A DNA stretch of 64,000 bases, taken from positions 2,227 through 66,226 of the forward strand of contig CAZKFV010000121.1 in assembly GCA_964552295.1 (NCBI GenBank), in the 5' to 3' direction. The position numbers and the translations under genes are program-made. This document shows positions 25,119 through 54,767 of the stretch, piece after piece. Within the stretch, counting starts at the first letter, position 1; each line of letters begins with the position of its first letter. The DNA is from an uncultured Thermotogae bacterium (GTDB lineage Bacteria; Bipolaricaulota; Bipolaricaulia; UBA7950; UBA9294). Below the pieces are notes generated by a model. It saw only the letters and a list, made by a program, of their open reading frames with translations. It did not search any database and was not told where the DNA came from.

Positions 25119-25164
25119 AAAACCGGCCATACACTGACCGGCTTTCTTGTGCCCAATACACGTA

Positions 25165-26526
25165 CTAATCGCTCGGAGGAGGCTGGATGTGCCCTGCATC
25201 CATCAGGATTTTTGTCTCTTCCTGAGCGTGATGGATCTTCGTCTCTGCTTCCCGACGCAGCTCATCCTCGGTAAGCTCACGGCGCGCAATTCCCTGTTCA
25301 ATTGCCTTCAGTCCAACTGCAACTGCCTCATTTATGAAAACATCAGTCTCCATCATCGTCGGGACAATATAATTTTCATTGATGCCCTTGTCCTCCGCTG
25401 TCTTCGCGATAGAGTACGCAGCAGCAATTGCCATCTCGTCTGTTATCGTCTTCGCAAACACATCAAGTGTCCCTCGGAAAATGCCGGGGAAGCCAATCGA
25501 ATTGTTCACTTGGTTAGCAAAATCAGACCTGCCGGTTCCTACAATTCGTACTCCAGCCTCTTTTGCCTCCCATGGCCAGATCTCCGGGGTGGGATTTGCC
25601 ATGATGAAGGCAACGGCATCTTTGTTCATTGCCATCAGCCATTCTTTCTTTATCGTCCCTGGGCCAGGCTTGGAAGCAGCTATCAGTACATCACTCCCCT
25701 CAATCGCTTTTTCCATATCTCCGGCACGCCCTTCCTGATTCGTTACCTGGGCGTAGTGCCACTTGTACGGATTGTTGCCCTTGTTCTTCTCCAGATCCTC
25801 ACGACCTGGGTGAAGAATGCCCTTGCTGTCCACCATGACAACGTTACCAGCAGGTACCCCAGCACTCAGAAGAATCCTAACAAAAGCTATATTAGCTGCA
25901 CCCGTTCCAATTACACAGTAAGTCACCTTGTTTATATCCTTTGAGACCACCTTCATTGCATTGATTACCCCGGCCAGGGTGATCGAGGCCGTGCCTTGCT
26001 GATCATCATGCCACACCGGTATGTCTAGCTCCTGGCGTAGGCGATCAAGAATGTAGAAACACTTGGGGTTGGCTAGATCTTCCAGGTTAACCCCTCCAAA
26101 TCCCGGAGCTATCCATTTTACTGCCTGTATTATTTCGTCAGGGTCCTCTGTATCCAACATAATCGGGAATGCTCCTACTCCCCCGAGAAACTTAAATAGG
26201 AGAGATTTACCCTCCATTACAGGAAGCCCTGCGTGCGGACCAATGTTCCCCAAACCTAGCACACGCGACCCGTCTGAAACAACCGCCACTGTGTTGGCCT
26301 TGTTCGTATAATCAAAAACCTTGCTCTGGTCTGCTTCAATCTCTCTACAGGGAGCGGCCACGCCGGGGGTATACCAAATTCCAAAGTCATCTACCTCTCT
26401 AACAGCACATTTCAGCGTGGTCTCAACCTTACCTCGATAGAAAGCGTGCCATGAAGGTGCCTTCTTGGCCGGTATCTCCGCTTTTTGCTTCATTTCCTCT
26501 ACGGTAAGCTTATCTTCCTCCATCAC
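25165..26526 (-). CDS. NAD(P)-dependent malic enzyme (small form)
   Basis: Has the malic enzyme NAD-binding segment (VIGTGAANIAFVRIL) and the catalytic region (YTPGVA...GLPVMEGKSLLFK). The 453-aa product is the last gene of the large operon. Confidence 0.85.
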   Translation of the reverse strand: MMEEDKLTVEEMKQKAEIPAKKAPSWHAFYRGKVETTLKCAVREVDDFGIWYTPGVAAPCREIEADQSKVFDYTNKANTVAVVSDGSRVLGLGNIGPHAGLPVMEGKSLLFKFLGGVGAFPIMLDTEDPDEIIQAVKWIAPGFGGVNLEDLANPKCFYILDRLRQELDIPVWHDDQQGTASITLAGVINAMKVVSKDINKVTYCVIGTGAANIAFVRILLSAGVPAGNVVMVDSKGILHPGREDLEKNKGNNPYKWHYAQVTNQEGRAGDMEKAIEGSDVLIAASKPGPGTIKKEWLMAMNKDAVAFIMANPTPEIWPWEAKEAGVRIVGTGRSDFANQVNNSIGFPGIFRGTLDVFAKTITDEMAIAAAYSIAKTAEDKGINENYIVPTMMETDVFINEAVAVGLKAIEQGIARRELTEDELRREAETKIHHAQEETKILMDAGHIQPPPSD

Positions 26527-27113
26527 TCCCCCTTCTCGATCTGATCGCGGATCTTCTGCATATTAATCTGTACAGCCTCGTCCACAGACTTGTACAAGCT
26601 TTCCCCATGAGCATCCATGGCTACAGCTAGAGGCCCGAATTTAGTCACTGACATGACCCACACTGCCTCTGGAATTCCTAGTTCCGAAAGCCAATGTACA
26701 TCAGTCACTTCGTCTATCGCCCGAGCCGCCAACGCACCCGCACCACCGGTGTAATGAGTGTAAACAGCTCCCGTGTTCTTCAACGCGGCTAGAGTCTTTT
26801 CCCCCATCCCACCTTTTCCAATGATCACCCGGACCGGAAAGGTTTCCAAAAAGCGATCCTCGAAGATCTCCATCCTGGCAGATGTAGTGGGACCAGCGGA
26901 GACAATCTTCCATTTGCTATCTTCCTTTTTTACTACTGGTCCACAGTGATAAAGACCTAGCCCTTCCAGAGGGAAAGGCTCTCCTTGTTCAAGCATCTTT
27001 AGGTGTGCCTCGTCACGGGCAGTGAATATCGTCCCCGTAATATAGATGACATCACCTACATGCAGATCACGTGCTTCTTCTTCTGAAATTGGAGTATTCA
27101 GCACTTTCTCCAT
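26523..27113 (-). CDS. Fumarate hydratase class I (Fe-S hydro-lyase), beta subunit
   Basis: The 196-aa product matches the tartrate/fumarate Fe-S hydrolyase beta family (IIGKGGMGEKTLAAL...YTGGAGALAA). Confidence 0.85.
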   Translation of the reverse strand: MEKVLNTPISEEEARDLHVGDVIYITGTIFTARDEAHLKMLEQGEPFPLEGLGLYHCGPVVKKEDSKWKIVSAGPTTSARMEIFEDRFLETFPVRVIIGKGGMGEKTLAALKNTGAVYTHYTGGAGALAARAIDEVTDVHWLSELGIPEAVWVMSVTKFGPLAVAMDAHGESLYKSVDEAVQINMQKIRDQIEKGE

Positions 27114-27114
27114 T

Positions 27115-27975
27115 TTAGCTCACCTCTATCTTACCGCTAGCATCAATCATTACCCTCGCCCTCCTATCAGCCCAGCATTGATAGACAATCCCTACCGGCA
27201 GCGAAGCAGGGTGACGGTGAGCGTACTCGATATGCACGTCAAGGCACGTGGTTTTGCCGCCCATTCCCATTGGCCCAATCCCGCTTTGGTTAATCAGATC
27301 ACGCAAGCTTTCTTCCAGCAGTGCTACATTATCTTCCTTGTGACGAGAACCGACCGGTCGCAATAATGACAGCTTACCAAGCTTGAGGGACAGATCCGCT
27401 CCGCCACCGATTCCAACTCCCACAATTCCTGGAGGGCACGGTTTTCCCGCACAAGCAACTACGTGGTCTACAACGAATCGCTTTATGCCCTTAATTCCCA
27501 CTCCAGGAGAAAGCATCCCCAAGCCGCCGCAGTTCTCGCTTCCCCCTCCCTTGGGGAGAAGATCAATTACACATTCATTCCCATCTACAATCTCCCAAGA
27601 GATATAAGGCACGTGGTACCCAACATTATCGCCAGGATTCTCGCCGGTAAATGGATGAACCGTATTGGGACGAAGCGGTACTTGCATTGTTGCCCTACGA
27701 ACAGCCTCCGCTATTACAGATCTCAGGGAAGAAAGACCAGGAAAGTCCGCCCCAACACGTACAATAAAGGTCTGAATACCGGTATCTTGACACATTGGAA
27801 TGGATCCGTCCCGCGCGGCATCAACGTTCTTAAGCATCGCCTCTAACTGTACCCGCGCGGCGCCTTCCTCCCTTTCCCTGGCCTCTTCTAATGCCAGGAT
27901 AACATCGTTAGGCAAAATTGTCTCAGCAATACGCACTGCATCGACTAACTGCCCTATTAGTTCCTCATCGTTCAT
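27115..27975 (-). CDS. Fumarate hydratase class I (Fe-S hydro-lyase), alpha subunit
   Basis: The 286-aa product contains SIPMCQDTGIQTF, the alpha-subunit catalytic Cys motif. It is coupled to the beta subunit. Confidence 0.85.
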   Translation of the reverse strand: MNDEELIGQLVDAVRIAETILPNDVILALEEAREREEGAARVQLEAMLKNVDAARDGSIPMCQDTGIQTFIVRVGADFPGLSSLRSVIAEAVRRATMQVPLRPNTVHPFTGENPGDNVGYHVPYISWEIVDGNECVIDLLPKGGGSENCGGLGMLSPGVGIKGIKRFVVDHVVACAGKPCPPGIVGVGIGGGADLSLKLGKLSLLRPVGSRHKEDNVALLEESLRDLINQSGIGPMGMGGKTTCLDVHIEYAHRHPASLPVGIVYQCWADRRARVMIDASGKIEVS

Positions 27976-28856
27976 CCGCCATTCCCTCCAAAGTGTTCAT
28001 TGACAAAGTTAGCGTATATTTCCAGGTAGTCGGGTTTTTCTCGGTTAACAAAGGTACCCACTATGAACTCTTCACCTGGTATAATTTCAGCGTCCTTGGG
28101 GTCAGAAAAATTTTTAATCACAGCCTTTTCTTGATAGTAGCGCATCTCATCAAGCGCGGTAGGAAGACGGTTCCTGCGGCCATAATTCGTCGGACATGGA
28201 CCAATGATCTCAACAAATGTAAAACCTCGCTTATTTATCGCTTCTTCCATCGCTCTCTGTAACCTATGTACATGCAGTGTAGTCCACCTCGCCACGTACG
28301 GAGCCCCAGACGATGCAGCTAAATAAGGAAGATTGAAAGGATGCTCGAACATTCCATATGGCGCAGTCGTCCCCTTTGCTCCCATCGGCGTCGTTGGCCC
28401 AACCTGTCCGCCCGTCATTCCATAGTTAAAGTTATTGACACATAAAACAGTAAGATCTATATTGCGGCGTGCGGCATGAATGAAGTGATTACCGCCTATA
28501 GAGAACAAATCTCCATCTCCGCTAAACACAACCACTTTTTGACCCGGCTTAGTCTTTTCCAGAGCTACGCGCAGGCCAGTAGCAAATGGTAAAGCCCTTC
28601 CATGTGTGGTGTGGTAAGAATCCGGGCGCATATAGCCAGCTAGCCGCCCAGAACAGCCGATGCCGGACACGATACTCACATCGTCCACATCGAGTCCCAG
28701 CCTATCAAATGTCGCCGCCAAACAGGACATAGATGTACCCAAGCCGCACCCAGAACACCAGATGTGAGGAAGACGCTCGCTTCGAAAGTAATGCTCAAGT
28801 GGATGACGAACATCGTTGACTATCTCGGGCTTTGGCTTAGTCACTAAACGTTTCAT
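27972..28856 (-). CDS. 2-oxoacid:ferredoxin oxidoreductase beta subunit (TPP-binding); likely 2-oxoglutarate synthase KorB from context
   Basis: Contains WCSGCG, the TPP/Fe-S region GDGD and the TPP-fold motif VVFSGDGDLFSIGGNHFIHAAR. Confidence 0.85.
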   Translation of the reverse strand: MKRLVTKPKPEIVNDVRHPLEHYFRSERLPHIWCSGCGLGTSMSCLAATFDRLGLDVDDVSIVSGIGCSGRLAGYMRPDSYHTTHGRALPFATGLRVALEKTKPGQKVVVFSGDGDLFSIGGNHFIHAARRNIDLTVLCVNNFNYGMTGGQVGPTTPMGAKGTTAPYGMFEHPFNLPYLAASSGAPYVARWTTLHVHRLQRAMEEAINKRGFTFVEIIGPCPTNYGRRNRLPTALDEMRYYQEKAVIKNFSDPKDAEIIPGEEFIVGTFVNREKPDYLEIYANFVNEHFGGNGG

Positions 28857-30001
28857 TTCGCCACCTCCTCTATCGCCGCAAGAATATCCTCCGGCCGGTG
28901 GAGACCTCCTCCTGCGTGGGGAACCAGGCGTACGACAGTCTGTCCAGCGGCTGCCCGCTCCACTTCGTTCACTATTTGGCCAAGGTTCAATTCAGGCACA
29001 ACTAGTCCCTTTACATCTCCTGCGATAGCACGCACCTGCTCTAAAGGAAATGGCCACACTGTGATCAATCTCAGCATGCCCACTTTGATACCTTTTTCCT
29101 CCGCCAATTCAATTGCTCGTGCAGAGGTGCGGGCAGCTATTCCATAGGTAACCACTACTACATCCGCTCCCCGAATGTTCTCCTTCTCGACCTCTATAAT
29201 CTGGTCTTTGTTAAGCCGGATCTTGTTGAGCAGGCGATTCATCAGTTTAGCCTGGGCCTCTTCCGATAGGTCAGGGTATCCCTGCTCGTCGTGGGTCAAA
29301 CCCGTTACATGGATCCTGTATCCCTGTCCAGCATTGGCCATCTCCGGCACCAAATCTGCTGTTCCCTTGTAAGGGAGGAACTGCTCATAGGGAACGCTTG
29401 GCTTACGGCGCGGATAGACCTCGATTTTGTCCGGATCTATTATCACTCGCTCCATCATATGCCCTACTACCTCGTCGGCCATTACCAAAACAGGCTGGCG
29501 GAATCTCTCAGACTGGTTAAACGCCTTTACTGTATGATCAAACATCTCTTGGGGAGAAGCTGGAGCATAGGCAATGATCTCATGATCACCATGCGTTCCC
29601 CATCGCGCTTGCATCATATCTTGCTGAGAAGTTGCTGTAGGAAGACCGGTGCTGGGACCGCCACGCTGCACATCTACTACTACACAGGGAGTCTCCGTCA
29701 TTATTCCCAGGCCCAGATTCTCCATCATCAGGGAGAAACCTGGACCGGAGGTAGCTGTCATAGCTTTCATTCCTCCCCAGGCTCCTCCAAGAATAGCAGC
29801 GATGGATGCCAGCTCGTCCTCCATTTGAAGAAAAAACCCTCCTATCGTAGGCAGACGGAGCGCCATGCGCTCCATAATCTCCGATTGAGGAGTAATCGGG
29901 TAACCGGCGAACAAGCGACAACCAACAGCTATCGCTCCCTCGGCACAGGCAACATCTCCATTTAGGAAATGCTCTCCAGCAAGGATATCCTTGTCACTCA
30001 T
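28853..30001 (-). CDS. 2-oxoacid:ferredoxin oxidoreductase alpha subunit (KorA-like)
   Basis: The N-terminus ILAGEHFLNGDVACAEGAI is typical of Kor/Por alpha subunits. The start was moved to the ATG at 30001, which has an AGGTGA SD (the ORF track starts at 30046, inside korD). Confidence 0.85.
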   Translation of the reverse strand: MSDKDILAGEHFLNGDVACAEGAIAVGCRLFAGYPITPQSEIMERMALRLPTIGGFFLQMEDELASIAAILGGAWGGMKAMTATSGPGFSLMMENLGLGIMTETPCVVVDVQRGGPSTGLPTATSQQDMMQARWGTHGDHEIIAYAPASPQEMFDHTVKAFNQSERFRQPVLVMADEVVGHMMERVIIDPDKIEVYPRRKPSVPYEQFLPYKGTADLVPEMANAGQGYRIHVTGLTHDEQGYPDLSEEAQAKLMNRLLNKIRLNKDQIIEVEKENIRGADVVVVTYGIAARTSARAIELAEEKGIKVGMLRLITVWPFPLEQVRAIAGDVKGLVVPELNLGQIVNEVERAAAGQTVVRLVPHAGGGLHRPEDILAAIEEVAK

Positions 30002-30275
30002 GCCTCTCACCTTCTTGTATGTTGTCGCGTTCACTCCAAATCGCAAAATCAGGACAGAGAAGCTGACAGTAAGCGCAGTTTACGCATTTTTCTGGGTAGA
30101 GCATTTCGGGATAATGATAACCCTTCTCATTGAACTCCTCTGATTGTCCCAGTACTTGCATTGGACAGAAATTGATACACAACTCACATCCCTTGCACAA
30201 GTTATCAACAATTGTTATGGTACCTTTCGCCGTCTTCCATCGCTTGCCGGTATTCACCGCATTAGCTTCCTTCAT
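29994..30275 (-). CDS. 2-oxoacid:ferredoxin oxidoreductase delta subunit (2x[4Fe-4S] ferredoxin)
   Basis: The 93-aa product has CKGCELCINFCP and CVNCAYCQLLCP motifs and sits immediately upstream of korA. Confidence 0.72.
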   Translation of the reverse strand: MKEANAVNTGKRWKTAKGTITIVDNLCKGCELCINFCPMQVLGQSEEFNEKGYHYPEMLYPEKCVNCAYCQLLCPDFAIWSERDNIQEGERHE

Positions 30276-31933
30276 AGCAGATGCCCTAATGTGCGTTCAT
30301 GCACGCTCTTTGGCCGATAGTCAGGCAGGATCATCGGTGCTTTGCGATCGGTTTCAATTCCTTGTTTGACCAATGCCTTTTCGTAATCTATCACATGCTG
30401 AAGTGACAGTCGGCCTAATTTCTCTTTTTTGGCCCACTTTCCAGCAGAGATTCCTGCCCGCCGGCCAAATACGTTGTAATCAAGCTGAGAATTTCCCATT
30501 AACCGATTCTTCCCATGCACACCGCCTTCGCACTCTCCACCTGCAAAAAGGCCGGGAATTCTGGTGTGAGCATCCGCATCGATCTCTACTCCACCATTTT
30601 GATAGTGTAGCGTCGGATAAATTAGCGCCGGGTCAACGGTAATATCGATGTCGTGTCGATGCCACATGGTCCACATTGCCGCTAGGGCTTTTTTTATCGT
30701 ACCTTTACCGTGAAGCTGCTCAATCATCGGGGTGTCCAACCACACACCACGGACTCCACTTGGAGTTTCGATCCCCTTGTTCTTCACCCAGCATTCCTCG
30801 ATGATCGCTGCCGCTTCCACATCGCGTGGCTCCAAGGGAAACACAAATGCTTCCCCGTCTTTGTTCACCGGCATTGCACCTTGATTGCGCAATTTTTCGG
30901 TGGCCAATTGGCCCAAAATAGCTGCAGGGAAAGCCACACCAGTCGGATGGTACTGCACCGAGTCCATGTCAATGATATTTGCACCAGCCCGATAGGCGAT
31001 CACTAGCCCATCCGCGGTAGCGCCGTAATGATTGGTGGTGGGGAAGCCCTGAATATGAACACGCCCGAAGCCGCCTGTGGCCAGCACCGTTGCCTTAGAG
31101 CGAATTACCCGGTATTCCTCGGTCTCAATGTTGTACACAACTGCTCCAGCCGCGTGTCCGTGCTCATCAAGGATAATCTCTACTGCTGGGAAGAACTCCA
31201 AAACTGGGATATCCAGATTACGTGCCTCGTCTCTGATGGCATTGAATGTTTCTTTCCCTGTGTAGTCCTTGGCGGAATGCATGCGCATCCGAGATGTCCC
31301 TCCGCCGTGAGCCTCTACATACTCCCCATTAACCTTGTCATACATCACACCCATATCCTCGTGCCAGCGGATAATTTCTGGACCATCAGTGACTAAGGCC
31401 TTCACTAAGTCAGGCTTGTTAGCATAGTGTCCACCCCCCATTACGTCCAGATAATGTATTGCTGGTGAATCCTGTGGCCTGTCAGCTGCCTGGATTCCTC
31501 CTTGGGCCATAATCGAGTTACAGTCCCCATGGCGCAGTTTAGTAGCAATCAGTATTCTATCTACAGGAATGCCTTGCTCATGGGCGAATATTGCAGCTAC
31601 CGTTCCCGCCCCTCCACCACCGATGACTAGTACATCCACATCGTGGTCGATTTTCGAGAGATCGATCTCCCGCGGATGCAGTACTGAGCTTGACTCGAGG
31701 ATATCTGCAACTTCATGAGGTACATATTCACCAGCCGAGGGGCCTATGACCAGTTTACGCTTTCCTTCTTCCTTATAGTCCGGATGACTGCGCTTGAGGA
31801 CTTCTTCCCTTTCCTCTGCGCTCATCGGTGGAGGCGGCCCCTCTTTCAGTCGCTTGCTTCTGGTGGCTTCTACCTTTTCGATCGACTCCCGCATGTAAGC
31901 GGGGTACCCTCTAATAAATCCCTTCTTACTCAC
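30272..31933 (-). CDS. Fumarate reductase / succinate dehydrogenase flavoprotein subunit
   Basis: Has the FAD dinucleotide motif VLVIGGGGAGT and the catalytic region HYQNGGVEID...GLFAGGECEGGVHGKNRLMGNSQLD. About 95 aa at the N-terminus precede the FAD-binding motif. Confidence 0.88.
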   Translation of the reverse strand: MSKKGFIRGYPAYMRESIEKVEATRSKRLKEGPPPPMSAEEREEVLKRSHPDYKEEGKRKLVIGPSAGEYVPHEVADILESSSVLHPREIDLSKIDHDVDVLVIGGGGAGTVAAIFAHEQGIPVDRILIATKLRHGDCNSIMAQGGIQAADRPQDSPAIHYLDVMGGGHYANKPDLVKALVTDGPEIIRWHEDMGVMYDKVNGEYVEAHGGGTSRMRMHSAKDYTGKETFNAIRDEARNLDIPVLEFFPAVEIILDEHGHAAGAVVYNIETEEYRVIRSKATVLATGGFGRVHIQGFPTTNHYGATADGLVIAYRAGANIIDMDSVQYHPTGVAFPAAILGQLATEKLRNQGAMPVNKDGEAFVFPLEPRDVEAAAIIEECWVKNKGIETPSGVRGVWLDTPMIEQLHGKGTIKKALAAMWTMWHRHDIDITVDPALIYPTLHYQNGGVEIDADAHTRIPGLFAGGECEGGVHGKNRLMGNSQLDYNVFGRRAGISAGKWAKKEKLGRLSLQHVIDYEKALVKQGIETDRKAPMILPDYRPKSVHERTLGHLL

Positions 31934-32651
31934 TTATCTCACTCCCTACTACTGCTTCCTCTCTTAATCGACCAGCATACGCCTCCGCTAGCCCCTCATG
32001 ACTCATGCTGACCAGCTCATCCAGTTCAGCATCAAAAACGCCATCCTTGATTTCCTGTAGGCGTTTCTCCAGGTGTTGAGGCACCGGAGACATGTATCGC
32101 CCGTATATTCTCCGCGCCATCTGTGCCATATGATAGTGCTTGATATCCGCTGGACAGCGCATGCTACACAGACCACACTGGATGCAATCAAAAGATAGCT
32201 GCGCCGTCTTCTCAATATCACCACGCAATGCCGCTTGTATGTAATCCATTACCTCTATGTCTTGCGGACAAGCTTTTGTACAAGTATTACAAGAAACGCA
32301 GCGGGCAATCTCTGGATAGTACTGTAGGAGTACATTCTCTTTTGGGTTAATCTTCTCGATATCATACTTAACACGAGGGGCTGGGGTGAACGGTAGCTGT
32401 ACCAGGTACATACCCTCCACTGCCGTCTCCTGGCAAGCAAGGGTAAACTGTAGCCGGTAGTCTCCTTCCTGGCGATAAACAGTCGAACAGGCGCCACAGA
32501 ACCCAGACCGACAACCCGCGCCTCGGGTGAACCGATAGCCAGCGTACTCCATTGCATCCATTATAGTTAGGCCCGCAGGAACCTCGTAGGTCTTGCCCAT
32601 AATATGGATGTGGATCATTTCAGATTTCTGGTCTTTCTTCTTACTTTCCAT
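31926..32651 (-). CDS. Fumarate reductase / succinate dehydrogenase iron-sulfur subunit
   Basis: Has the 2Fe-2S motif CRSGFCGACS, plus CVSCNTCTKACP and CIQCGLCSMRCP for the 4Fe-4S/3Fe-4S clusters. Confidence 0.85.
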   Translation of the reverse strand: MESKKKDQKSEMIHIHIMGKTYEVPAGLTIMDAMEYAGYRFTRGAGCRSGFCGACSTVYRQEGDYRLQFTLACQETAVEGMYLVQLPFTPAPRVKYDIEKINPKENVLLQYYPEIARCVSCNTCTKACPQDIEVMDYIQAALRGDIEKTAQLSFDCIQCGLCSMRCPADIKHYHMAQMARRIYGRYMSPVPQHLEKRLQEIKDGVFDAELDELVSMSHEGLAEAYAGRLREEAVVGSEISE

Positions 32652-32652
32652 C

Positions 32653-33965: not shown

Positions 33966-35263
33966 GGTACCCTCCAGTGCTCAATCATCTTTCCCTCTTT
34001 ATCTCTCATAGTAATCAGGAGTGAGAACTCAGCCTTGGGCTCAAAAGCTGGCTGGTAAGCGCTAATAACGTTCGCTATTCGCTCGGCCGTCGCCTCAGTG
34101 ACCTCATGCCCGCTACTGTTCACAACAGCAGAAATAGCGGCTTTTACCTCCGATGCGAGGAGCTCCCCCGTAGGAGCAATTTGCGCTTGGGCAACCATCC
34201 CCTGCTTATCCAGAACGTAACGATGGATCGCCGTACCGCAAGCTCCTTCTATCGCTGCTATGCCTTCGCCTGGTTCGTTCAAGGAGCAATGGATATCAGA
34301 ATTGCCGGTCTCTAGTTGCTCTAACTCTTGGGATAAGAGCTCTGCTGCCTGCACCAGCTCTATCACCGTTGCCCAGTGCCCGACAGCAGCCAAGTGAACC
34401 GGCGGTTGGCCAACCACTTCAAACAACTTCTCCTGTGAACGCCTTGCCTCCGGCGTTGACGCCTGGCAACCAACGTTTATACGGGCCAGAGGCCCGACAC
34501 GAAGTGGCAGCTTCTCTTTCCAGGCTGCAACCTTCGCTAAGATCTTCTTTGCATCGCCCTTAGCAAATTCAGTCCCTTTGGGATCAACAATTCGCAGCGT
34601 ACCCTGGTAGAAACTGCAAGCCCCTGAATCATCTACTGTCGCTAGAGAATAGGCTTGTGTAAGCACTCCTTGCTCTTTTACCCATGCCGCATAACAAGTA
34701 CGAAACTCTTCCTCTATTCGCAAGGAAAAATCTAGCAGGTTTGCAGCAATATCCTTGGCACGTGCTAGCTCTTTATCGGTTATTCCTCTAGTCAGCCCAC
34801 CTGGAACTAGCCGTTCTGGTGTAATCCCACGGCCTCCCAGTATCCCGATAGCTTCGCCAGCGCCACTAAGAGCGCCAAACACATCGCCTGCCTCCGCTTC
34901 ATCAGTCATTACCAAGCTCGAGATGCCATCACTTCCACTCGGGCGACTGAAGAAAAGCTGCTGCAAGTGAGCAAAAAATACTCCAAGGTAAGCAAGTGCG
35001 TGTCGAATCCTCAAAGCTTTCTGGGGTAGTATCACCTGGTAACACCTATCAAGGGCGCTCACAGCAGCTAGGTGATTAGCCATCCCACAATGAGCATCAA
35101 TTCGCTGAGCGTACAAGGGGATGTCTTCTGCTAGCCTGCCACGCATGTACAAGGCGAAACCATCGCGTGCTTTCTGAATTGGGACGCTGGCGGAAATCGG
35201 ATCGCCCTTTACTAACTCCACCAGATCGAAGTGACTCACCGGCATGATTCTCTTACTCTCCAT
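33962..35263 (-). CDS. [NiFe]-hydrogenase large-subunit-like protein (MvhA-like) that appears to lack the Ni-Fe ligand cysteines
   Basis: A 433-aa protein in the MvhA position. Its N-terminal motif RIDAHCGMANH replaces RxCGxCxxxH, and the C-terminus (SAYQPAFEP...HWRVP) has no DPCxxC motif. Confidence 0.55.
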   Translation of the reverse strand: MESKRIMPVSHFDLVELVKGDPISASVPIQKARDGFALYMRGRLAEDIPLYAQRIDAHCGMANHLAAVSALDRCYQVILPQKALRIRHALAYLGVFFAHLQQLFFSRPSGSDGISSLVMTDEAEAGDVFGALSGAGEAIGILGGRGITPERLVPGGLTRGITDKELARAKDIAANLLDFSLRIEEEFRTCYAAWVKEQGVLTQAYSLATVDDSGACSFYQGTLRIVDPKGTEFAKGDAKKILAKVAAWKEKLPLRVGPLARINVGCQASTPEARRSQEKLFEVVGQPPVHLAAVGHWATVIELVQAAELLSQELEQLETGNSDIHCSLNEPGEGIAAIEGACGTAIHRYVLDKQGMVAQAQIAPTGELLASEVKAAISAVVNSSGHEVTEATAERIANVISAYQPAFEPKAEFSLLITMRDKEGKMIEHWRVP

Positions 35264-36143
35264 CGTTAACCCTCCCTTTCAAAACAGAGGAAGCAGCCGA
35301 ATACTTGTACGCTGTACCGACGATATCGAGCACGGAATCCAGCACCTTACGTCCCTTTGCCTCTTTACCTTCCCCCGAGAAGGAAACTAAGGAGGCAAGA
35401 GCATGCAGGATTGCTGCTCCCTGATCTCGCACTCCGGCAACTGATCCTGAGCAGCCGGTACACGGACGGTTGGACTTTAGGCATACAGCGCCACATCCAC
35501 CTCTGGTGACAGGGCCGAGGCAGATATACCCCTGATCTATAAGACAAATCTCTGGATCGGGTGGAGAAGCATGGTATCGCTTGATCTCGGTAAGAGGGTT
35601 ATGAATATGTCGACGGTCGCACTCCGCGCATACCGCCTTTTCATTGGCAAAAACAGTCCCTTGGTCTGGTGCTTGGTCTGAAAGCAAAAGCTCTTCGATC
35701 ATCCTTTCAATCATTGTCTGCGGTGGTGGACAGCCAGCAATGATGTAATCAACGTCGATAACCGCAGGCAGCGGCTGGACAAATTCTCCATTAGCTTCTG
35801 CGCGCCCCCTCAATTGTGCCCCAGGGGCTACGTTCGCTAGTCCACAAAGCCCTCCAAGATGAGCACATGCCCCATAAGCTACAACTCGTCTTGCCTTACA
35901 GCGCAGAAGCTTGGCCACAGCTACAGCCTCTTGTCCGTGGACAGGGCCAACGTACATAAGAATGTCGATGTCTCGATCACCGTATTTGTCTATATCATCC
36001 ACAGTAAGATCGCCCTCTTCAGTGGCCCAGAAGAGGAGCTCTGCTGAGTTGAGCATCTTTTTCAGGCTCGGGCTTAGCAAAAGCGACTGACTGCACCCGC
36101 CACATCCACTTGCAGCGTAGATTGCCAAGTTCTTTTTAGGCAT
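35253..36143 (-). CDS. [NiFe]-hydrogenase small-subunit-like Fe-S protein (MvhG-like)
   Basis: Has the Cys clusters GCGGCSQS, GACAHLGGLC, CAECDRRH and CLGPVTRGGCGAVCLKSNRPCTGCSG, and sits between mvhD and the mvhA-like gene. Confidence 0.65.
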   Translation of the reverse strand: MPKKNLAIYAASGCGGCSQSLLLSPSLKKMLNSAELLFWATEEGDLTVDDIDKYGDRDIDILMYVGPVHGQEAVAVAKLLRCKARRVVAYGACAHLGGLCGLANVAPGAQLRGRAEANGEFVQPLPAVIDVDYIIAGCPPPQTMIERMIEELLLSDQAPDQGTVFANEKAVCAECDRRHIHNPLTEIKRYHASPPDPEICLIDQGYICLGPVTRGGCGAVCLKSNRPCTGCSGSVAGVRDQGAAILHALASLVSFSGEGKEAKGRKVLDSVLDIVGTAYKYSAASSVLKGRVNDGE

Positions 36144-36561
36144 TTGACATCACCGGACTCGGCCCTAATGCACGGATATCTTCGGTAAAAGTCTCTACAG
36201 CCCGCTGGAAGATCAGGCCTTGCGCCCCTGCGATCCCCACCTCGCGGATTCTCTCAGGGTTAAACCCGAACTCCTTAAGGGCTCTTTTCATCAGGTAAAT
36301 TCGGTTTGACTCTTTGAGGTTTCCGCCCTCATAGCGACAATGGCCCGGACGGCACCCACCAATTAGAATCCCGTCCGCTCCCTTTTCAAAAGCTGATAGA
36401 ATCATGTCCGAACTTACTTCACCCGTACAATTGACCCGGATGATCGAGACATTGGATGCGTAAGGCATTCGACTGACGCCGCAAAGATCAGCAGCAGCAT
36501 AGGTTGTCCACTTACATAAGAAAGCGATTATCTTTGGCTGAAATTCAGTATTCTGACTCAT
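36136..36561 (-). CDS. Methyl-viologen-reducing hydrogenase delta subunit (MvhD/FlpD family)
   Basis: The N-terminus KIIAFLCKWTTYAAADLCG...VSIIRVNCTGEVS matches the MvhD signature (KIVAFxCNWCSYAGADLAG...IRVMCSG) with some substituted Cys. Confidence 0.75.
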   Translation of the reverse strand: MSQNTEFQPKIIAFLCKWTTYAAADLCGVSRMPYASNVSIIRVNCTGEVSSDMILSAFEKGADGILIGGCRPGHCRYEGGNLKESNRIYLMKRALKEFGFNPERIREVGIAGAQGLIFQRAVETFTEDIRALGPSPVMSNA

Positions 36562-38513
36562 ATTCCACTTCCCAGAGCGGCTGCGATCATGCTCTCTATC
36601 TGCTCTTGCCGCTCATTCCTAACCTCGATCGCTCCCGCTGGACATGACGCGGCACAGATACCGCATCCTGAGCAGAGGATTTCATTTACTACCGCAATGC
36701 CGGACCGCTCAACCTTAACCGCGTCGTAAGGGCAAACGAACTCACATATTCCACACCCCGAGCAGAGAGCTTCTTTGACTGAGGCTACCTCGGGAGAGTG
36801 GCTAAGTTTATCAGCTGCCAGGATAGCAATGGCTTTCGATGCTGCCGCACTTCCTTGAGCGACCGAATCAGGAATATCCTTTGGCCCTTGTACGGTTCCC
36901 GCGATGAATACCCCAGCTGTGGTTGTATCTACCGGCCGCAGCTTCGGATGGGCTTCCTTGAGAAAACCATTCTCATCCACGTTGATATGGAACGTCTTGG
37001 CTAACTCGGATGTTCCCTCGCTAGGAACTATCGCCATTGCCAACACAACTAAGTCCACATCCAGCTCAACCTGTCTACCGCTTAAGGTATCCGCCCCCCA
37101 GACAGTAAGGTGATCTCGTTCATTCACTATCTTGGCAACCTTTCCCCGAATGTAGCTAATACGTTGTCCAGAGATAATACCTTGAGCGAATTCCTCGTAG
37201 CCCTTCCCGTCCGTGCGAACATCTATGTAAAAGACACTTGCCTGGCCATCAGGCACGGCCTTTTTGAAGAGTAGCGCGTGCTTTACAGTGTAAGTACAGC
37301 AAATTCTTGAGCAATAAGGCTTGTGCCTTCCTGGATCACGCGATCCCGCGCAGTGGACAAACGCGATTCTCTTTACCGGTCGTCCGTCGGACGGCCTTTT
37401 CAACTGCCCCTTCATTGGCCCAGATGGATGCACCATTCGCTCAAACTGAAGAGAGGTGACAACATCCGCGTACTTCCCTCCGCCATACTCAGTGAGGTGG
37501 CTTGGATCGTACAGGTCGTAGCCCGTGGCAACAATTATAGCAGCTACCTTTTCCGTAATGATCTCAGGCGCCATATCATAGTCAATAGCCCCTACGTCGC
37601 ATACTTCCTGACACAATCCACAACGAATAGGTTTTACTCCCAGGCACACGTCTTCATCCAGCACATATGAAGAAGGAATGGCCTGCTCAAAAGGCAAATA
37701 AATAGCCTTACGTTCAGACAAAGCCTCGTTGAACTCCTCTTTAGTGCTAACCGGACATACTTCTGCGCACTTATTACACAAATTGCACTTGTCTGCATCA
37801 ACATAGGTTGGTCTCTTACGAATTGTCACCTCGTAGTTTCCAGTGTAGCCAGCAACCTTAATCACCTCGCTATAGGTAAGAAGCCTAATGTTAGGATGTC
37901 GAGAAGCTTCAACCATACGAGGGGTGAGTATGCATTGGGCGCAGTCAAGGGTCGGAAAGGTAACAGACAGCTGCGCCATATGCCCCCCGATGCTCGGATC
38001 CTTTTCCACTAGAATAACTTGGTGCCCGCTGTTAGCTACGTCTATGGCTGCTTGAATCCCGGCGATCCCTCCACCCACCACAAGGCACTTCGTTTCATGA
38101 TCTACAGCGATGGGAAAGAGGTCAATGTCACCGCGCACTTTTTCCACCGCAGCACGCGTTATACGGATTGCTTTCTCGGTTGCTATCTCCCGATCCGAGT
38201 GCACCCAGCTCACCTGCTCACGGATATTGGCTACCTCAAGGCGGTAACGGTTTAGTCCAGCTTCTTCAGCCGCGTTTCGGAAAGTCTCTTGGTGCATTGA
38301 TGGAGTGCATGAAGCAACCACAACTCCATCCAACTTGTGCTCTACGATCGCGGTGCGGATCTTCTCTTGTCCGATCTCAGAGCACATGTAATCGTAATCT
38401 TCAGAATGTACAACCCCGGGATACTCGCCTACTGCTTCTGCTACCCGGCGTGTATCCACCGTCTCCTCGATATTCATCCCGCAATGACACACAAAAACAC
38501 CTATTCGGCTCAT
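36558..38513 (-). CDS. Heterodisulfide reductase subunit A (FAD and Fe-S, bifurcating flavoprotein family)
   Basis: Has the HdrA N-terminal 4Fe-4S motif VFVCHCGMNI, the FAD motif LVVGGGIAGIQAA and inserted and C-terminal ferredoxin domains (CNLCNKCAEVCP, CGLCQEVC, CSGCGICEFVCP, CSGCGICAASCP). Confidence 0.88.
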   Translation of the reverse strand: MSRIGVFVCHCGMNIEETVDTRRVAEAVGEYPGVVHSEDYDYMCSEIGQEKIRTAIVEHKLDGVVVASCTPSMHQETFRNAAEEAGLNRYRLEVANIREQVSWVHSDREIATEKAIRITRAAVEKVRGDIDLFPIAVDHETKCLVVGGGIAGIQAAIDVANSGHQVILVEKDPSIGGHMAQLSVTFPTLDCAQCILTPRMVEASRHPNIRLLTYSEVIKVAGYTGNYEVTIRKRPTYVDADKCNLCNKCAEVCPVSTKEEFNEALSERKAIYLPFEQAIPSSYVLDEDVCLGVKPIRCGLCQEVCDVGAIDYDMAPEIITEKVAAIIVATGYDLYDPSHLTEYGGGKYADVVTSLQFERMVHPSGPMKGQLKRPSDGRPVKRIAFVHCAGSRDPGRHKPYCSRICCTYTVKHALLFKKAVPDGQASVFYIDVRTDGKGYEEFAQGIISGQRISYIRGKVAKIVNERDHLTVWGADTLSGRQVELDVDLVVLAMAIVPSEGTSELAKTFHINVDENGFLKEAHPKLRPVDTTTAGVFIAGTVQGPKDIPDSVAQGSAAASKAIAILAADKLSHSPEVASVKEALCSGCGICEFVCPYDAVKVERSGIAVVNEILCSGCGICAASCPAGAIEVRNERQEQIESMIAAALGSGI

Positions 38514-39052
38514 GATTTCAGCTTCCTCCCATAGTCATAGCCCTCTTCGAACGCCTCTTTGTTCAGTTCGCAGAAGCGGGGAGGAACGGAAGCCTGAACT
38601 GAATCCAGCATTGCATCCTTGCTCACCATACCGGTGATAGCCACTATTGCTCCTAACATGACAACGTTGGCCACAACCCTGTTTCCTAAGCCCTCCGCCA
38701 ACTTCGTTGCCGGAACCTTATATAGGTGCACATCATCGTGAATCTCCCCCAGAGAAACCAAGTCCTCATCAACAATGAGGGTTCCTCCCTTGGCGATGGT
38801 TGAGCCAAAAGTGGTATACGCCTCTTGGGACATGATCACTAGTATATTGGGGGTTGTTACATTAGGATAAGAGATCCGATCTTGTGAGATGACAACATTG
38901 GCGCTGCATGCGCCTCCGCGCGCTTCAGGACCATAAGATTGTGTAAGAACAGCATTTAGATTGTCGTGGACTGTGGCAGCCCGCCCAGAAATCTTGGCGG
39001 CCGATATGATTCCTTGGCCGCCAAAGCCAGCAAACCGAACTTCTGTTCGCAT
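38510..39052 (-). CDS. 2-oxoacid:ferredoxin oxidoreductase gamma subunit (KorC-like)
   Basis: The 180-aa product contains the gamma-subunit motif GFGGQGIISAAKISG...QSYGPEARGG. It is separated from korDAB by the hdr/mvh/frd genes. Confidence 0.8.
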   Translation of the reverse strand: MRTEVRFAGFGGQGIISAAKISGRAATVHDNLNAVLTQSYGPEARGGACSANVVISQDRISYPNVTTPNILVIMSQEAYTTFGSTIAKGGTLIVDEDLVSLGEIHDDVHLYKVPATKLAEGLGNRVVANVVMLGAIVAITGMVSKDAMLDSVQASVPPRFCELNKEAFEEGYDYGRKLKS

Positions 39053-39125
39053 CGATTCGCTCCTTCTTAGTTGGTTGCAGGTTATTTGCGCTTGTGCTGA
39101 TGATCACAAATCCCGGCGCGCGGAC

Positions 39126-39154
39126 TATATAACCCTTTTCTCCTCGTATGTCAA
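39126..39154 (-). promoter_or_regulatory. Sigma70-like promoter (TTGACA-N17-TATATA) in the sucD-korC intergenic region, with its -35 box inside a CTCCTC/GAGGAG hairpin
   Basis: On the minus strand the sequence reads CTCCTCTTGACATACGAGGAGAAAAGGGTTATATAGTCC. The -35 and -10 boxes are 17 nt apart, and an inverted repeat CTCCTC-N9-GAGGAG overlaps the -35. Confidence 0.35.
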
Positions 39155-39164
39155 GAGGAGAAAC

Positions 39165-40031
39165 TCATATAATGTCATTTATTGCATGCCCTATCTTGGC
39201 GGGACTCTCCACTACAGTGACACCTGCTTGAGTAAGGGCAGTGATCTTTGCAGCGGCTGTCCCGCTTCCACCGGTCACTATCGCTCCCGCGTGTCCCATC
39301 CGCCTTCCTGGAGGTGCAGTACGCCCAGCAATAAAAGCTACAACAGGTTTACTGACATGTTCGGATATGTAATGAGCAGCTTCCTCCTCCGCACTACCTC
39401 CTATTTCTCCAATCAATACCATCGCCTCTGTTTGTGAATCAGCTTCAAACATCTCTAACAAATCGATAAACGAAAGACCGACTATGGGGTCTCCTCCCAT
39501 TCCTACACATGTTGACTGTCCTATTCCTCGCTGCGATAGCTGGTTTACCGCCTCATAGGTCAAAGTACCACTACGCGACATAACCCCCACACTTCCTTGC
39601 CGATGGATGTACCCTGCCATTAGGCCCAATTTCGCTTTACCTGGAGATATAATACCAGGTGTATTAGGCCCGATAAGCTTAGTGTGGTGAATGTCCAGGT
39701 ACCTACGGACATGTACCATGTCATTCACTGGAATCCCCTCAGTTAGGCATATGACAAGCTCGAGGCCTGCTTCCGCTGCTTCCAAGATGGCATCAGCGGC
39801 AAACCTAGGAGGAACAAAGATCATGGACACATTCGGATTGCAATTCTCAACCGCCTCGCTAACCGTATTGAATACTGGTACACCATGAACAGCCTGTCCC
39901 GCCTTGCCAGGGGTAACGCCGGCCACAACATTAGTGCCGTAAGCAATCATCTGTTCTGTATGAAAGCTACCTTCCCTTCCAGTAATCCCCTGAATCAGCG
40001 CTCGCGTATTCTCATCAACTAAGATGCTCAT
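39165..40031 (-). CDS. sucD: Succinyl-CoA synthetase alpha subunit
   Basis: The N-terminus is [27 protein letters not shown]; the product also carries the CoA-binding and phosphohistidine loop. Confidence 0.92.
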
Positions 40032-41196
40032 TCTTTTCCCCTCCTAGCGCTTGAGCAACTAGTGTCGCTGCCTCGTCTAAGTCACTAGCCCGCAGAAATT
40101 CAAGTCCTGATTGAGCAAGGATGTCTCTTCCTTCCTCAACGTTTGTACCCTCCAATCGCACAATCACCGGAACCTGAACCTGCAGTCTCTTGACCGCAGC
40201 TACAATGCCACGCGCCAGAATGTCGCAGCGCAGTATTCCACCGAATATGTTGATGAACACCGCTCGCACATCCGGGTCAGAAAGCAAGAGCGAAAAACCC
40301 TTCTCGATCATTTCCTCGTTCGCGCTTCCCCCAACATCTAAAAAGTTCGCAGGAGTTGCTCCAGCAAGCTTGATTAGGTCCATGGTGGCCATAGCTAAGC
40401 CTGCTCCATTGACCAAGCAACCAACATTGCCATCAAGCTTAATGTAATTCAAGTGGTTCTTCTTTGCTTGCGATTCAAGTGGGTTTTCCTCGTTTGGGTC
40501 TTGTAGCTTTTCAATCTCCGGGTGGCGAAAGATCCCGTTATCATCGAAGTTAATCTTCGCGTCTAGTGCGATGACGTCATCCTCAAAATCGACCACTAAC
40601 GGGTTGATCTCCACTAACATACAATCCTTATCCAAGAACAAGCGGTAAAGGTTGTTTATTATCTTTGCTACTTGTGATGTGGCCTGCGTGCTCAGTCCTA
40701 ATTTTACCGCCAGCCGGTAGCACTGAAACGCACGTAAACCAATCTCAGGCCAAACCCATTCCTTGAAAATCCTGTCCGGGAAATCTTTGGCTATCTGCTC
40801 GATTTCCATTCCCCCAGCAGGGCTAGCCATGATTACGGGGAGTCTTCGGTAACGGTCAATCGTAATCCCTAAGTAGATCTCCGTCTTGACCTTGGTTGCT
40901 TCCTCAATGAGGACCCGATGCACCACACGCCCTTCAGGGCCAGTTTGGTGTGTAACTAGCGGATAATTAAGGATCTTCTCTGCAAAATGCCCTGCTTCTT
41001 GGGCGGAGTCAACTATCTTCACCCCTCCCGCCTTCCCTCTTCCCCCCGCGTAGATCTGAGCTTTCACTACGACTGGACCAGAGAAAGCAGAGGCCACTTT
41101 GCTTGCCTCACTTGGCGTGGAAACCACATTTCCAGCCGGCACGGGGATGGAGAAGGAAGAGAACAGCTCTTTAGCTTGATACTCGTGAACCTTCAT
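40015..41196 (-). CDS. sucC: Succinyl-CoA synthetase beta subunit (ATP-grasp)
   Basis: The N-terminus is [12 protein letters not shown]...[18 protein letters not shown]. The start has a GGAGG RBS. Confidence 0.92.
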
Positions 41197-41310: not shown

Positions 41311-41313
41311 AAA

Positions 41314-41386: not shown

Positions 41387-41426
41387 AATTCTCACTTACT
41401 TATTCTAGCCCCTCTATATAGACCGA

Positions 41427-54759: not shown

Positions 54760-54767
54760 CTTTCCTC

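Follow-up and report, generated by a model that had tools for sequence, protein, structure and literature searches.

A predicted Hdr-linked soluble fumarate reductase built into the genes of a reductive C4 branch, with a hydrogenase-like module that has lost its NiFe ligands

The stretch of contig CAZKFV010000121.1 analyzed here (64,000 nucleotides, hereafter called the window) carries, at positions 25165-41196, a block of 17 open reading frames (ORFs), all on the minus strand, in which homologs of heterodisulfide reductase (Hdr) and of the Mvh hydrogenase are joined to a fumarate reductase-type flavoprotein and its Fe-S partner, called FrdA' and FrdB' below, and to enzymes of the C4 branch. 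An earlier reading of the same DNA, made from its letters alone (the sequence-only reading), had given the order and coordinates of the 17 genes, and both are borne out by the ORFs and by Pfam and NCBIfam, which back all 17 labels at the domain level: sucC-sucD-korC-hdrA-mvhD-mvhG-mvhA-hdrC-hdrB-frdB-frdA-korD-korA-korB-fumarase alpha-fumarase beta-malic enzyme (Table 1). The junctions are indeed as tight as that reading described, measuring in gene order -17, +112, -4, -4, -8, -11, -4, -4, +1, -8, -4, -8, -4, -4, +1, and -4 nt (negative values denote overlaps); 15 of the 16 thus lie between a 17-nt overlap and a 1-nt gap, and the remaining one is the 112-nt gap between sucD and korC. The 8-nt overlap of korD and korA holds with the korA start at ATG 30001, on which one JGI gene call agrees (382 aa), and a 53-nt overlap was rejected as an artefact of the longest ORF, which starts at TTG. 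The order from korC to maeB is exactly that of locus L019, from Acetothermia, and loci L081, L086, and L087 share the window's order, including sucCD, to the limits of their contigs. Since the identical order recurs in relatives, the arrangement is not a product of chance.

FrdA' (553 aa) matches FAD_binding_2 (PF00890) at residues 100-482 and is not matched by Succ_DH_flav_C (PF02910). It retains the catalytic residues H329, T345, E346, R370, H443, and R477, equivalent to H232, T244, E245, R287, H355, and R390 of E. coli FrdA and invariant in the family alignment, and its AlphaFold (AF2) model, with a predicted TM-score (pTM) of 0.85, finds its best Foldseek matches in E. coli FrdA and M. smegmatis Sdh1. 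The place of the histidine that binds FAD covalently (R-S-H-T motif) is occupied by Asn139, which is invariant in the 61 aligned members, and FrdA' is predicted to bind FAD non-covalently. Furthermore, FrdA' carries a highly conserved N-terminal extension of 97 aa with many invariant residues; residues 1-97 are predicted to fold with a per-residue confidence (pLDDT) above 90, have no counterpart in the aligned FrdA/SdhA structures, and may, judging from the model, provide a docking surface for FrdB' or Hdr. The best NCBIfam model for FrdA' is TfrA (NF004900), at 294.4 bits against a cutoff of 718 over model positions 7-429 of 546, and every Frd, Sdh, or NadB model of NCBIfam scores far under its cutoff. 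As for FrdB' (241 aa), it contains one plant-type [2Fe-2S] motif and two CxxCxxCxxxCP motifs, with 12 conserved cysteines; it is matched by no SdhB/FrdB model (TIGR00384 and dhsB included), its PDB sequence matches contain no SdhB, and a Pfam search found no CCG domain in it.

None of the 17 genes codes for a small hydrophobic subunit that would serve as a membrane anchor, and the hydropathy peaks of their products correspond to Rossmann-type segments. Because there is no anchor, because FrdB' is matched by no SdhB/FrdB model, and because the models that match FrdA' stay under cutoff, we regard FrdA'B' as a soluble fumarate reductase that forms a family of its own. The "canonical" FrdAB of the sequence-only reading is thus supported as to catalytic residues and FrdA fold, but the adjective does not survive the loss of the covalent-FAD histidine, of Succ_DH_flav_C, and of any SdhB/FrdB match. 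A quinone-linked Frd/Sdh was rejected on the same features (no covalent-FAD histidine, no PF02910, no SdhB-type subunit, no anchor). So was a type-E SdhABEF/MFR system, which the sequence-only reading had itself set against its proposal: MFR_Fp_SdhA scores 184 bits against a cutoff of 1100, MFR_anch_SdhE 150 against 500, and MFR_FeS_SdhB 25 against 600, the last match being HdrC and not FrdB', and here too the membrane anchor is missing. The FrdA' family has more than 8000 database matches, and identity does not fall under 63% among the best 120. Proteins labelled Acetothermia and Bipolaricaulota occur in the 90%-identity cluster of the window FrdA', whose best GTDB locus is labelled Anaerolineae (75%).

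Residues 3-648 of the window HdrA align to 8rvu_a at 673 bits, and the protein is predicted to be a full-length HdrA of the bifurcating type. Of the 27 columns in which orthologs conserve a cysteine, it retains 26, HdrB retains 10/10 and HdrC 8/8 conserved cluster cysteines, and all Hdr/Mvh equivalog models of NCBIfam score under cutoff in the window. At the exceptional HdrA column, residue 101, the cysteine of NIREQCSWVH (84% of orthologs) is replaced by valine in the window and its clade; the column holds Asp in M. maripaludis and Val in the Heimdall locus L050, whose MvhA is intact, and the change is probably minor. Val101 was also considered as the counterpart of the HdrA selenocysteine and rejected, both on account of these two residues and since Sec197 maps to the retained C191/C194 region. 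The 2-oxoacid:ferredoxin oxidoreductase (KOR) is complete by Pfam, with alpha, beta (binding thiamine pyrophosphate, TPP), gamma, and delta (2x[4Fe-4S]) subunits. KorA, the sole subunit above an NCBIfam cutoff, passes NF006412, a generic 2-oxoacid model, and the models specific to 2-oxoglutarate:ferredoxin oxidoreductase (OGOR) stay under theirs (delta 76.6 bits against 125, beta 240.5 against 364, alpha 362 against 579).

The hydrogenase-like pair departs most from its relatives. MvhA' reads RIDAHCGMANH where MvhA of the solved complex has RICGICxxAHH, and YQPAFEPKAE where orthologs have YDPCxxCxxH, so that three of the four cysteine ligands of the NiFe site (RxCGxC...DPCxxCxxH pattern) are lost and one cysteine remains. 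In the other loci the motifs are intact, the N-terminal one in 27/27 orthologs that cover it (that of L012 begins downstream of the motif and was left out of this count) and the C-terminal one in 28/28; the Acetothermia loci L018, L019, and L021 are among those with an intact MvhA. We predict that MvhA' cannot bind NiFe, and because its ligands are lost, H2 is not the donor in the window lineage, contrary to a possibility that the sequence-only reading had entertained. A database search places MvhA' in a NiFe-less clade, probably Bipolaricaulota, of 14 clusters (428-435 aa, 44-100% identical), all without the ligands but with common motif remnants; three divergent members lie in the same operon, with sucCD, up to the ends of their contigs. 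Beyond the clade, identity with intact MvhA falls to ~28%, while intact orthologs are ~55% identical among themselves. Between the window and L081, the rate of nonsynonymous substitution (dN) is 0.37 for mvhA', 0.21 for mvhG', and 0.07-0.15 for the other genes; synonymous divergence (dS) is saturated or undefined for most genes of this pair, which leaves as usable the relative dN values and, for mvhA' (dS above 2), a bound of at most ~0.16 on dN/dS. The mvhA' ORF is intact and its overlaps with neighboring genes are retained, the AF2 model (pTM 0.85) has MvhA 5odc_F as best match (TM-score 0.76), and MvhG' retains 12/12 cysteines of its three Fe-S clusters. MvhA'G' is a stable, remodelled, non-catalytic hydrogenase-like module and not a fresh pseudogene.

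A further change marks the NiFe-less clade at MvhD, where the four members checked (4/4) read CKWT...DLCG and all 37/37 other orthologs CxWC...DLAG. The substitutions C19T and A27C, in the region of residues 16-27, shift a cysteine by eight residues without losing it, the total remaining at five, and may represent a ligand swap at the [2Fe-2S] cluster that links to the bifurcating FAD. A new metal site in MvhA' formed by Asp56, His58, and Cys59 was considered and discarded, as it is not clade-wide (P0133 and P0134 lack the His and Cys). A second, independent group of MvhA-like proteins without the NiFe cysteines (RILPILAPAHH; proteins P0139-P0145) is exemplified by L088:8001-9302, in a cluster of hdrC-hdrB, a 1117-aa HdrA, mvhD, an mvhG-like gene, the MvhA-like gene, and small sulfite-reductase-like proteins; this HdrA carries additional pyridine-nucleotide-binding and Fer4_20 domains.

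Relatives of FrdA' occur in at least 599 loci (GTDB contigs, one genome per species). We mapped the window's 17 proteins onto the best 80 of these and evaluated those 51 loci in which 6 kb or more of sequence precedes frdA. There, frdB' adjoins frdA' without exception (51/51), 39 loci have hdrA, hdrB, and hdrC together, 33 have hdrB immediately before frdB, 28 have kor genes, and 18 have the complete hdrABC plus mvhADG set. The synteny search that the sequence-only reading had recommended for the frdB-hdrB-hdrC and korC-hdrA junctions reveals a widespread association (hdrB-frdB 33/51, kor 28/51), and its statement that the hdr/mvh genes are not a separate locus applies across many phyla, where they are linked to frdBA and lie within kor. 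The loci bear more than 15 phylum-level labels, among them Anaerolineae, Acetothermia/Bipolaricaulota, Thermotogae, Chloroflexales, Spirochaetota, Aminicenantes, Thermoplasmata, Methanofastidiosum, Theionarchaea, Bathyarchaeia, and Heimdallarchaeia. Fumarase genes neighbor the cassette also where kor is missing (L006, L014, L015, L045, L048, L054, L057, L068, and L070). The arrangement is ancient or widely transferred, and not specific to the window genome.

The donor module is the part that varies. The 51 loci divide into 20 with Mvh, 9 with Flx, 14 with HdrA and no donor module, and 8 with no hdr gene within range. Where mvhAG is missing, three genes corresponding to FlxC, FlxB, and FlxA can occupy the slot between mvhD and hdrC/frdB, with FrhB-like plus Fer4, Fer4_22, and FAD_binding_6 plus NAD_binding_1 plus DHODB-type Fe-S domains; FlxABC is absent from the window, where MvhGA fills this slot. 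The family's constant core is MvhD(=FlxD)-HdrA-HdrC-HdrB-FrdB'-FrdA', and a constant core with a swappable input argues that the core takes its electrons from a mid-potential donor. The exchange of Mvh and Flx at one position thus fits a core that splits mid-potential electrons between fumarate and ferredoxin, and solved Hdr assemblies of methanogens likewise combine a constant core with exchangeable input modules. In some of the loci L078, L079, L022, and L031, frdB and frdA are surrounded by two sets of hdrCB or hdrA, and L078 and L079 have an hdrC-hdrB-hdrA block between the two frd genes; the cassette has repeatedly undergone rearrangement and duplication.

We propose, at a probability of roughly 60%, that the block encodes a soluble cytoplasmic Hdr-linked fumarate reductase, built into the genes of a reductive C4 branch and bifurcating at HdrA. 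Malic enzyme, class I fumarase, fumarate reductase, succinyl-CoA synthetase, and the four-subunit KOR would together form 2-oxoglutarate from pyruvate or malate in an anaerobe that probably belongs to Bipolaricaulota/Acetothermia. In the family at large, the FAD of HdrA would receive electron pairs from MvhAG (H2) or FlxABC (NAD(P)H) via the [2Fe-2S] cluster of MvhD. The downhill electron would travel through HdrC, HdrB, and the clusters of FrdB' to the non-covalent FAD of FrdA' and to fumarate, and the uphill electron would leave by the ferredoxin domain of HdrA for ferredoxin, or pass straight to KorD, to be spent by KOR in the carboxylation of succinyl-CoA. With standard potentials (E0') of about +33 mV for fumarate/succinate, -414 mV for H2, and ~ -500 mV for ferredoxin, we calculate that the reaction of 2 H2 with fumarate and oxidized ferredoxin is exergonic by ~70 kJ/mol. 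The predicted non-covalent FAD and these thermodynamics favor the reductive direction. Fumarate-linked bifurcation had already been advanced by the sequence-only reading; the type of HdrA, the cysteines of HdrB and HdrC, the catalytic residues of FrdA', and the Mvh/Flx exchange fit it, but the concept itself is not new, as discussed below.

For the window itself, analogy with other Hdr systems points to two most likely sources of electrons: reduced ferredoxin, which would enter via HdrA in a non-bifurcating mode as in HdrA2B2C2, or a donor encoded elsewhere that would dock on MvhD or MvhG', MvhA'G' being then retained as a structural or electron-wire module. Several points weigh against our proposal. 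In the window, transfer from ferredoxin to fumarate would waste ~0.5 V; moreover, the retention of all MvhG' clusters argues for the passage of electrons, which a ferredoxin donor leaves unexplained. Malic enzyme usually runs in the decarboxylating direction. The contact between FrdB' and HdrBC is deduced from gene adjacency, and the specificity of KOR for 2-oxoglutarate is read from the sucCD context. Finally, 8 of the 51 loci have no hdr in range, so that FrdAB' may act with other partners too.

Other explanations have to be weighed against an Hdr-linked bifurcating fumarate reductase. It is possible, although we consider it doubtful, that MvhA'/MvhG' have been repurposed as a non-H2 input or docking module of an H2-independent machine and that the Mvh-Hdr complexes of many non-methanogens use fumarate as acceptor. 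The pair would then parallel NuoD/NuoB of complex I, which derive from a hydrogenase, the cysteine shift of MvhD would be part of the retuning, and KOR would possibly be bound directly to a fumarate-reducing, 2-oxoglutarate-making assembly; in Heimdallarchaeia, Thermoplasmata, Bathyarchaeia, and Bipolaricaulota, fumarate would replace the "unidentified heterodisulfide" of the literature. We regard as unlikely a thiol-mediated coupling, in which HdrBC would reduce a small-molecule or protein disulfide (methanogen- or DsrC-like) and the fumarate reductase would re-oxidize the thiol, HdrC-HdrB-FrdB'-FrdA' acting as a split TfrAB served by HdrA/MvhD through a diffusible cofactor. HdrC and HdrB do map to consecutive positions of the TfrB model NF004898 (123-230 and 261-479), with a weak match of FrdB' at positions 170-209, inside the HdrC-like stretch; the 10/10 CCG cysteines of the disulfide-reducing site are retained in HdrB, and the route was considered in a supplementary note of Rubin-Blum et al. 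and in the Sifarchaeia paper. Against it, FrdB' has no CCG domain of its own; the cassette holds a single HdrBC pair where a thiol cycle needs a disulfide reductase plus a thiol oxidase, and the abutting of hdrB and frdB in 33 of the 51 loci suits one complex better. Nor are the host phyla known to synthesize CoM or CoB.

Improbable, in our view, is an oxidative run of the pathway from glutamate through 2-oxoglutarate, succinyl-CoA, succinate, fumarate, and malate to pyruvate, with a confurcating complex that would place electrons from succinate and reduced ferredoxin on a mid-potential acceptor, which would be H2 where MvhA is intact. Papers on metagenome-assembled genomes (MAGs) depict peptide degraders with the pathway running this way, malic enzyme typically decarboxylates, and succinyl-CoA synthetase would yield ATP; the window also contains genes for a glutamate formiminotransferase (FTCD; 12673-13608) and a 437-aa amidohydrolase (19084-20397), which may belong to a histidine-to-glutamate catabolism supplying 2-oxoglutarate. 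Yet the covalent-FAD histidine is Asn in 61/61 aligned FrdA' members, and FrdA/SdhA require covalently bound FAD to oxidize succinate. By our calculation, succinate (+33 mV) and ferredoxin (~ -500 mV) average ~ -233 mV, from which protons would be reduced only at ~0.1 Pa H2, and the window has no catalytic hydrogenase to release H2. Asn139 and these energetics thus disfavor the confurcating succinate oxidation that the sequence-only reading had offered as the reverse mode. Quite improbable is the idea that MvhA'G' is decaying baggage, the window complex working like its HdrA-only relatives and the two genes heading for deletion. Donor modules are indeed missing from 14 of the 51 loci, and MvhA' evolves 3-5 times faster than most genes of the operon and has drifted to ~28% identity from orthologs that share ~55%; but its ORF has stayed intact at 428-435 aa in 14 clusters that diverge down to 44% identity, with conserved motif remnants, a dN well under the saturated dS, and a confident fold prediction, and both the 12/12 MvhG' cysteines and the gene overlaps have been preserved. 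Very improbable, finally, is a flavoprotein that does not act on fumarate, such as an L-aspartate-oxidase-like enzyme or another enoate/2-enoyl reductase, the tricarboxylic acid (TCA) cycle context being coincidental. NadB models score 245 bits on FrdA', close to the 252-294 bits of the Frd models, and all are under cutoff; NadB (1knp) is among the structural matches and has the same catalytic residues. However, class I fumarase genes adjoin the cassette across many unrelated lineages, even where kor is missing, sucCD and kor are recurrent neighbors, and an Fe-S partner subunit typically accompanies Frd/Sdh but not NadB.

The idea of a bifurcating complex that reduces fumarate, which the sequence-only reading had put forward, was in fact proposed by Rubin-Blum et al. 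2019 (PMC6315080) for the order frdB-frdA-hdrC-hdrB-korDABC-hdrA-flxDCBA of tubeworm symbionts and Thioflavicoccus mobilis, with NADH as donor (via Flx) and bifurcation to fumarate and to ferredoxin/OGOR. For this Flx cluster, Mitchell et al. 2024 (PMC11636981) report similar differential-expression patterns except for tfrAB, together with intergenic transcription, and a 2026 survey repeats the Rubin-Blum model. The korABCD-tfrAB-flxABCD-hdrABC cluster (Ca. Endoriftia, the Escarpia symbiont, and T. mobilis) resembles the window in its co-oriented, interleaved genes for an AB-type soluble Frd, HdrABC, MvhD/FlxD, and KOR; we liken the two by description, and Flx-type cassettes with the FrdA' family are among the loci compared here. 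The symbiont cluster differs in its donor module, FlxABC (NADH) instead of an MvhG/MvhA pair whose NiFe site is gone, and in its setting, a full reductive TCA (rTCA) cluster with ATP-citrate lyase in an autotroph, whereas the window has the C4 branch only, with malic enzyme.

Compared with MvhADG-HdrABC of methanogens (PDB 5ODC, 8RVU, and 9SW2), the gene set is the same and HdrA, HdrB, HdrC, MvhD, and MvhG are full-length homologs with their ligands kept, but the NiFe site is lost in the window MvhA', and the acceptor is CoM-S-S-CoB in the former and presumably fumarate, reached through two extra subunits, in the latter. The host phylum of the window is not methanogenic. TfrAB of Methanothermobacter is likewise a soluble fumarate reductase of anaerobes, in a reductive branch to 2-oxoglutarate, and TfrB contains HdrC-like and HdrB-like parts, the counterparts of the window HdrC and HdrB. 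TfrB unites Fe-S and CCG domains on one polypeptide, whereas the window splits them between FrdB' without CCG and a separate HdrB; in FrdA', the C-terminal 117 positions of the TfrA model are unmatched and the N-terminal extension is added. HdrA2B2C2 of Methanosarcina acetivorans is an Hdr without a dedicated hydrogenase, for which Yan et al. 2017 (PMC5296606) reported ferredoxin-dependent activity, with reduced ferredoxin or F420H2 as electron source. Among the models, that of HdrA2 scores highest on the window HdrA and MvhD (785 bits, under the cutoff of 1100), but HdrA2 fuses the two proteins, which are encoded by separate genes in the window, and its substrate is a heterodisulfide. Elp, an isoform of FdhA in Methanococcus, is an Hdr input module that is retained and used although its metal site is dead, so that a donor docking on MvhD/MvhG' has a precedent; Elp derives from formate dehydrogenase and oxidizes F420H2, and no such cofactor site is evident in MvhA'. 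The C and D subunits of FrdABCDE of Hydrogenobacter are said to be Hdr-like. FrdABCDE of Hydrogenobacter thermophilus, likened here by description, has been purified as a soluble, irreversible five-subunit fumarate reductase of the rTCA cycle with an FrdA-type subunit and extra non-membrane subunits; its donor is NADH, and there is no report of bifurcation (Miura et al. 2008, as summarized in PMC13147460).

In the literature that we searched, which did not extend to Miura 2008 or to the HdrA(BC) review of Appel et al. 2021, we found no description of the Mvh-type cassette or of its breadth, nor the phrase "bifurcating fumarate reductase." An Acetothermia genome paper describes HdrABC plus MvhDGA as an H2-recycling complex and reports Sdh/Frd as not annotated; a 2024 Asgard paper gives the acceptor of Mvh-Hdr as "an unidentified heterodisulfide compound," and another Asgard paper mentions thiol:fumarate reductase in passing. 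MAG papers on Acetothermia, Culexarchaeia, Asgard, and an Antarctic lake mention Hdr/Mvh and fumarate reductase apart and unlinked. That some MAG studies report no annotated fumarate reductase or succinate dehydrogenase is explained by the flavoprotein often being labelled only "FAD-binding protein." Our analysis adds the breadth of the cassette, the exchange of Mvh, Flx, or no donor module, the distinct FrdA'B' family, the dead-hydrogenase clade with its shifted MvhD cysteine, and a promoter and operator that would belong to the core genes. The acceptor of Mvh-Hdr in organisms without CoM-S-S-CoB is an acknowledged gap, and many bacterial and archaeal anaerobes link the hdr/mvh genes to those of a distinct soluble fumarate reductase, often within kor and near fumarase. 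Fumarate as the high-potential acceptor, with ferredoxin feeding the synthesis of 2-oxoglutarate, is thus a concrete hypothesis for many lineages beyond the tubeworm symbionts. The window lineage, with a hydrogenase that is catalytically dead yet conserved, constitutes a natural experiment that bears on the evolution of input modules in bifurcating complexes.

The 112-nt gap between sucD and korC qualifies the view of the block as a single 17-gene translationally coupled operon. The overlaps support that claim, but a four-genome alignment of the gap discloses two elements that set sucCD apart: a promoter-like element on the minus strand, with TTGACA at 39154-39149, a 17-nt spacer, and TATATA at 39131-39126 (TATA[TC]A across the four genomes), and the 18-bp palindrome TTGTGATCATCAGCACAA at 39109-39092, also on the minus strand, whose conserved form across the four genomes is TTGTGATC-N-T-N-A-N-CACAA. 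Both elements are invariant in this alignment of genomes whose synonymous sites are saturated, and the palindrome would sit at ~+10 to +27 from the predicted start. A consensus sigma-70 scan had missed the promoter-like element because its rule demands that the -10 hexamer end in T; the comparative alignment found it. The perfect palindrome occurs once in the window, and a search allowing one mismatch gives 2 matches against 2.0 expected, so that the case rests on conservation across genomes. The elements are confined to the NiFe-less clade: L081-L087 have the palindrome, and it was not found upstream of korC in L001, L018, L019, L021, or L027. We take it to resemble a Rex or CRP-type box or operator; no Rex-like site was found upstream of korC in the relatives with an intact hydrogenase, and no regulator gene in the window. 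The genes from korC to maeB probably have, on this comparative evidence, a regulated promoter of their own, and the promoter and palindrome before korC suggest that transcription of these 15 genes is under control of a redox type; sucCD may be transcribed separately or form an additional unit. The block is better read as sucCD plus a 15-gene core (korC..maeB) than as one 17-gene operon. Upstream of korC, L021 (Bipolaricaulota, ~1600-1640) and L027 (Thermotogae, ~2250-2290), both with an intact MvhA, share another motif, TAATCATTTT-N-AGG-N-TTGATCTT[A/T]ATCATGGA, which includes an FNR-like TTGAT-N4-ATCA; regulation there therefore differs from that in the window's clade.

Table 1. Genes and other features of the block and its borders, in the direction of the minus strand
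Feature	Position	Strand	Evidence and remarks
tRNA-Val(CAC)	41313..41387	-	Rfam 65.7 bits; ARAGORN; followed by terminator-like hairpin 41310-41289; 5' boundary
sucC, ADP-forming succinyl-CoA synthetase beta	40015..41196	-	NF001913, 538.5 bits (cutoff 370)
sucD, succinyl-CoA synthetase alpha	39165..40031	-	TIGR01019, 447.9 bits (cutoff 353); 17-nt overlap with sucC
sucD-korC intergenic region, promoter-like element and palindrome	39053..39164	-	four-genome alignment
korC, 2-oxoacid:ferredoxin oxidoreductase gamma	38510..39052	-	PF01558, 127.6 bits; NF006323, 211.6 bits, under cutoff 235
hdrA, FAD and six Fe-S clusters	36558..38513	-	673 bits to HdrA of solved Hdr complexes, full length
mvhD (= flxD), [2Fe-2S] connector	36136..36561	-	PF02662, 143 bits
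mvhG', hydrogenase small-subunit homolog	35253..36143	-	PF01058; VhuG model 132.6 bits (cutoff 450)
mvhA', [NiFe]-hydrogenase large-subunit homolog without NiFe site	33962..35263	-	alignment; AF2 model
hdrC, 2x[4Fe-4S]	33534..33965	-	TIGR03290 and NF041890 matches, both under cutoff
hdrB, two CCG domains (two non-cubane [4Fe-4S] clusters)	32653..33537	-	PF02754 twice; 133 bits to 8rvv_B, full length
frdB', Fe-S subunit	31926..32651	-	Fer2 and Fer4 matches only
frdA', fumarate-reductase-type flavoprotein	30272..31933	-	PF00890 residues 100-482; TfrA model 294 bits (cutoff 718)
korD, delta, 2x[4Fe-4S]	29994..30275	-	OGOR_delta 76.6 bits, under cutoff 125; 8 conserved Cys
korA, alpha, start ATG 30001	28853..30001	-	NF006412, 558.5 bits (cutoff 411)
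korB, TPP-binding beta	27972..28856	-	PF02775; NF007207, 240.5 bits, under cutoff 364
class I Fe-S fumarase alpha	27115..27975	-	NF004885, 314.6 bits (cutoff 276)
class I Fe-S fumarase beta	26523..27113	-	TIGR00723, 197.5 bits (cutoff 145)
maeB, NAD(P)-dependent malic enzyme, without PTA domain	25165..26526	-	PF00390 and PF03949
intrinsic-terminator-like hairpin, 13-bp stem and T-run	25117..25147	-	hairpin scan; ends the block

The block is bordered on its 5' side by the tRNA-Val gene and a hairpin and on its 3' side by a hairpin right after the maeB stop. The genes that flank it are bacterial housekeeping genes (PNPase, RNase E/G, Obg, MetRS, GroEL, the dcw cluster, and BamA), and because of these neighbors we consider the block chromosomal. 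L082 (JGI 3300001335, contig ML8_10000824) is an older assembly of the window's sequence in which korB is split into 239 + 49 aa and maeB into 155 + 283 aa and hdrA is shortened to 645 aa; the genes are intact in three newer assemblies, and the splits are probably frameshift errors of assembly. At 14021-16995, the window encodes a BamA/Omp85 protein with POTRA domains beside an OmpH-like protein, from which it follows that the source organism has an outer membrane. Finally, a 1351-aa beta-propeller protein (Reg_prop, PorZ-like repeats), a 280-aa ORF without Pfam match, and a 722-aa subtilase are encoded at 50779-57775, and these genes may specify a secreted or surface proteolytic system.

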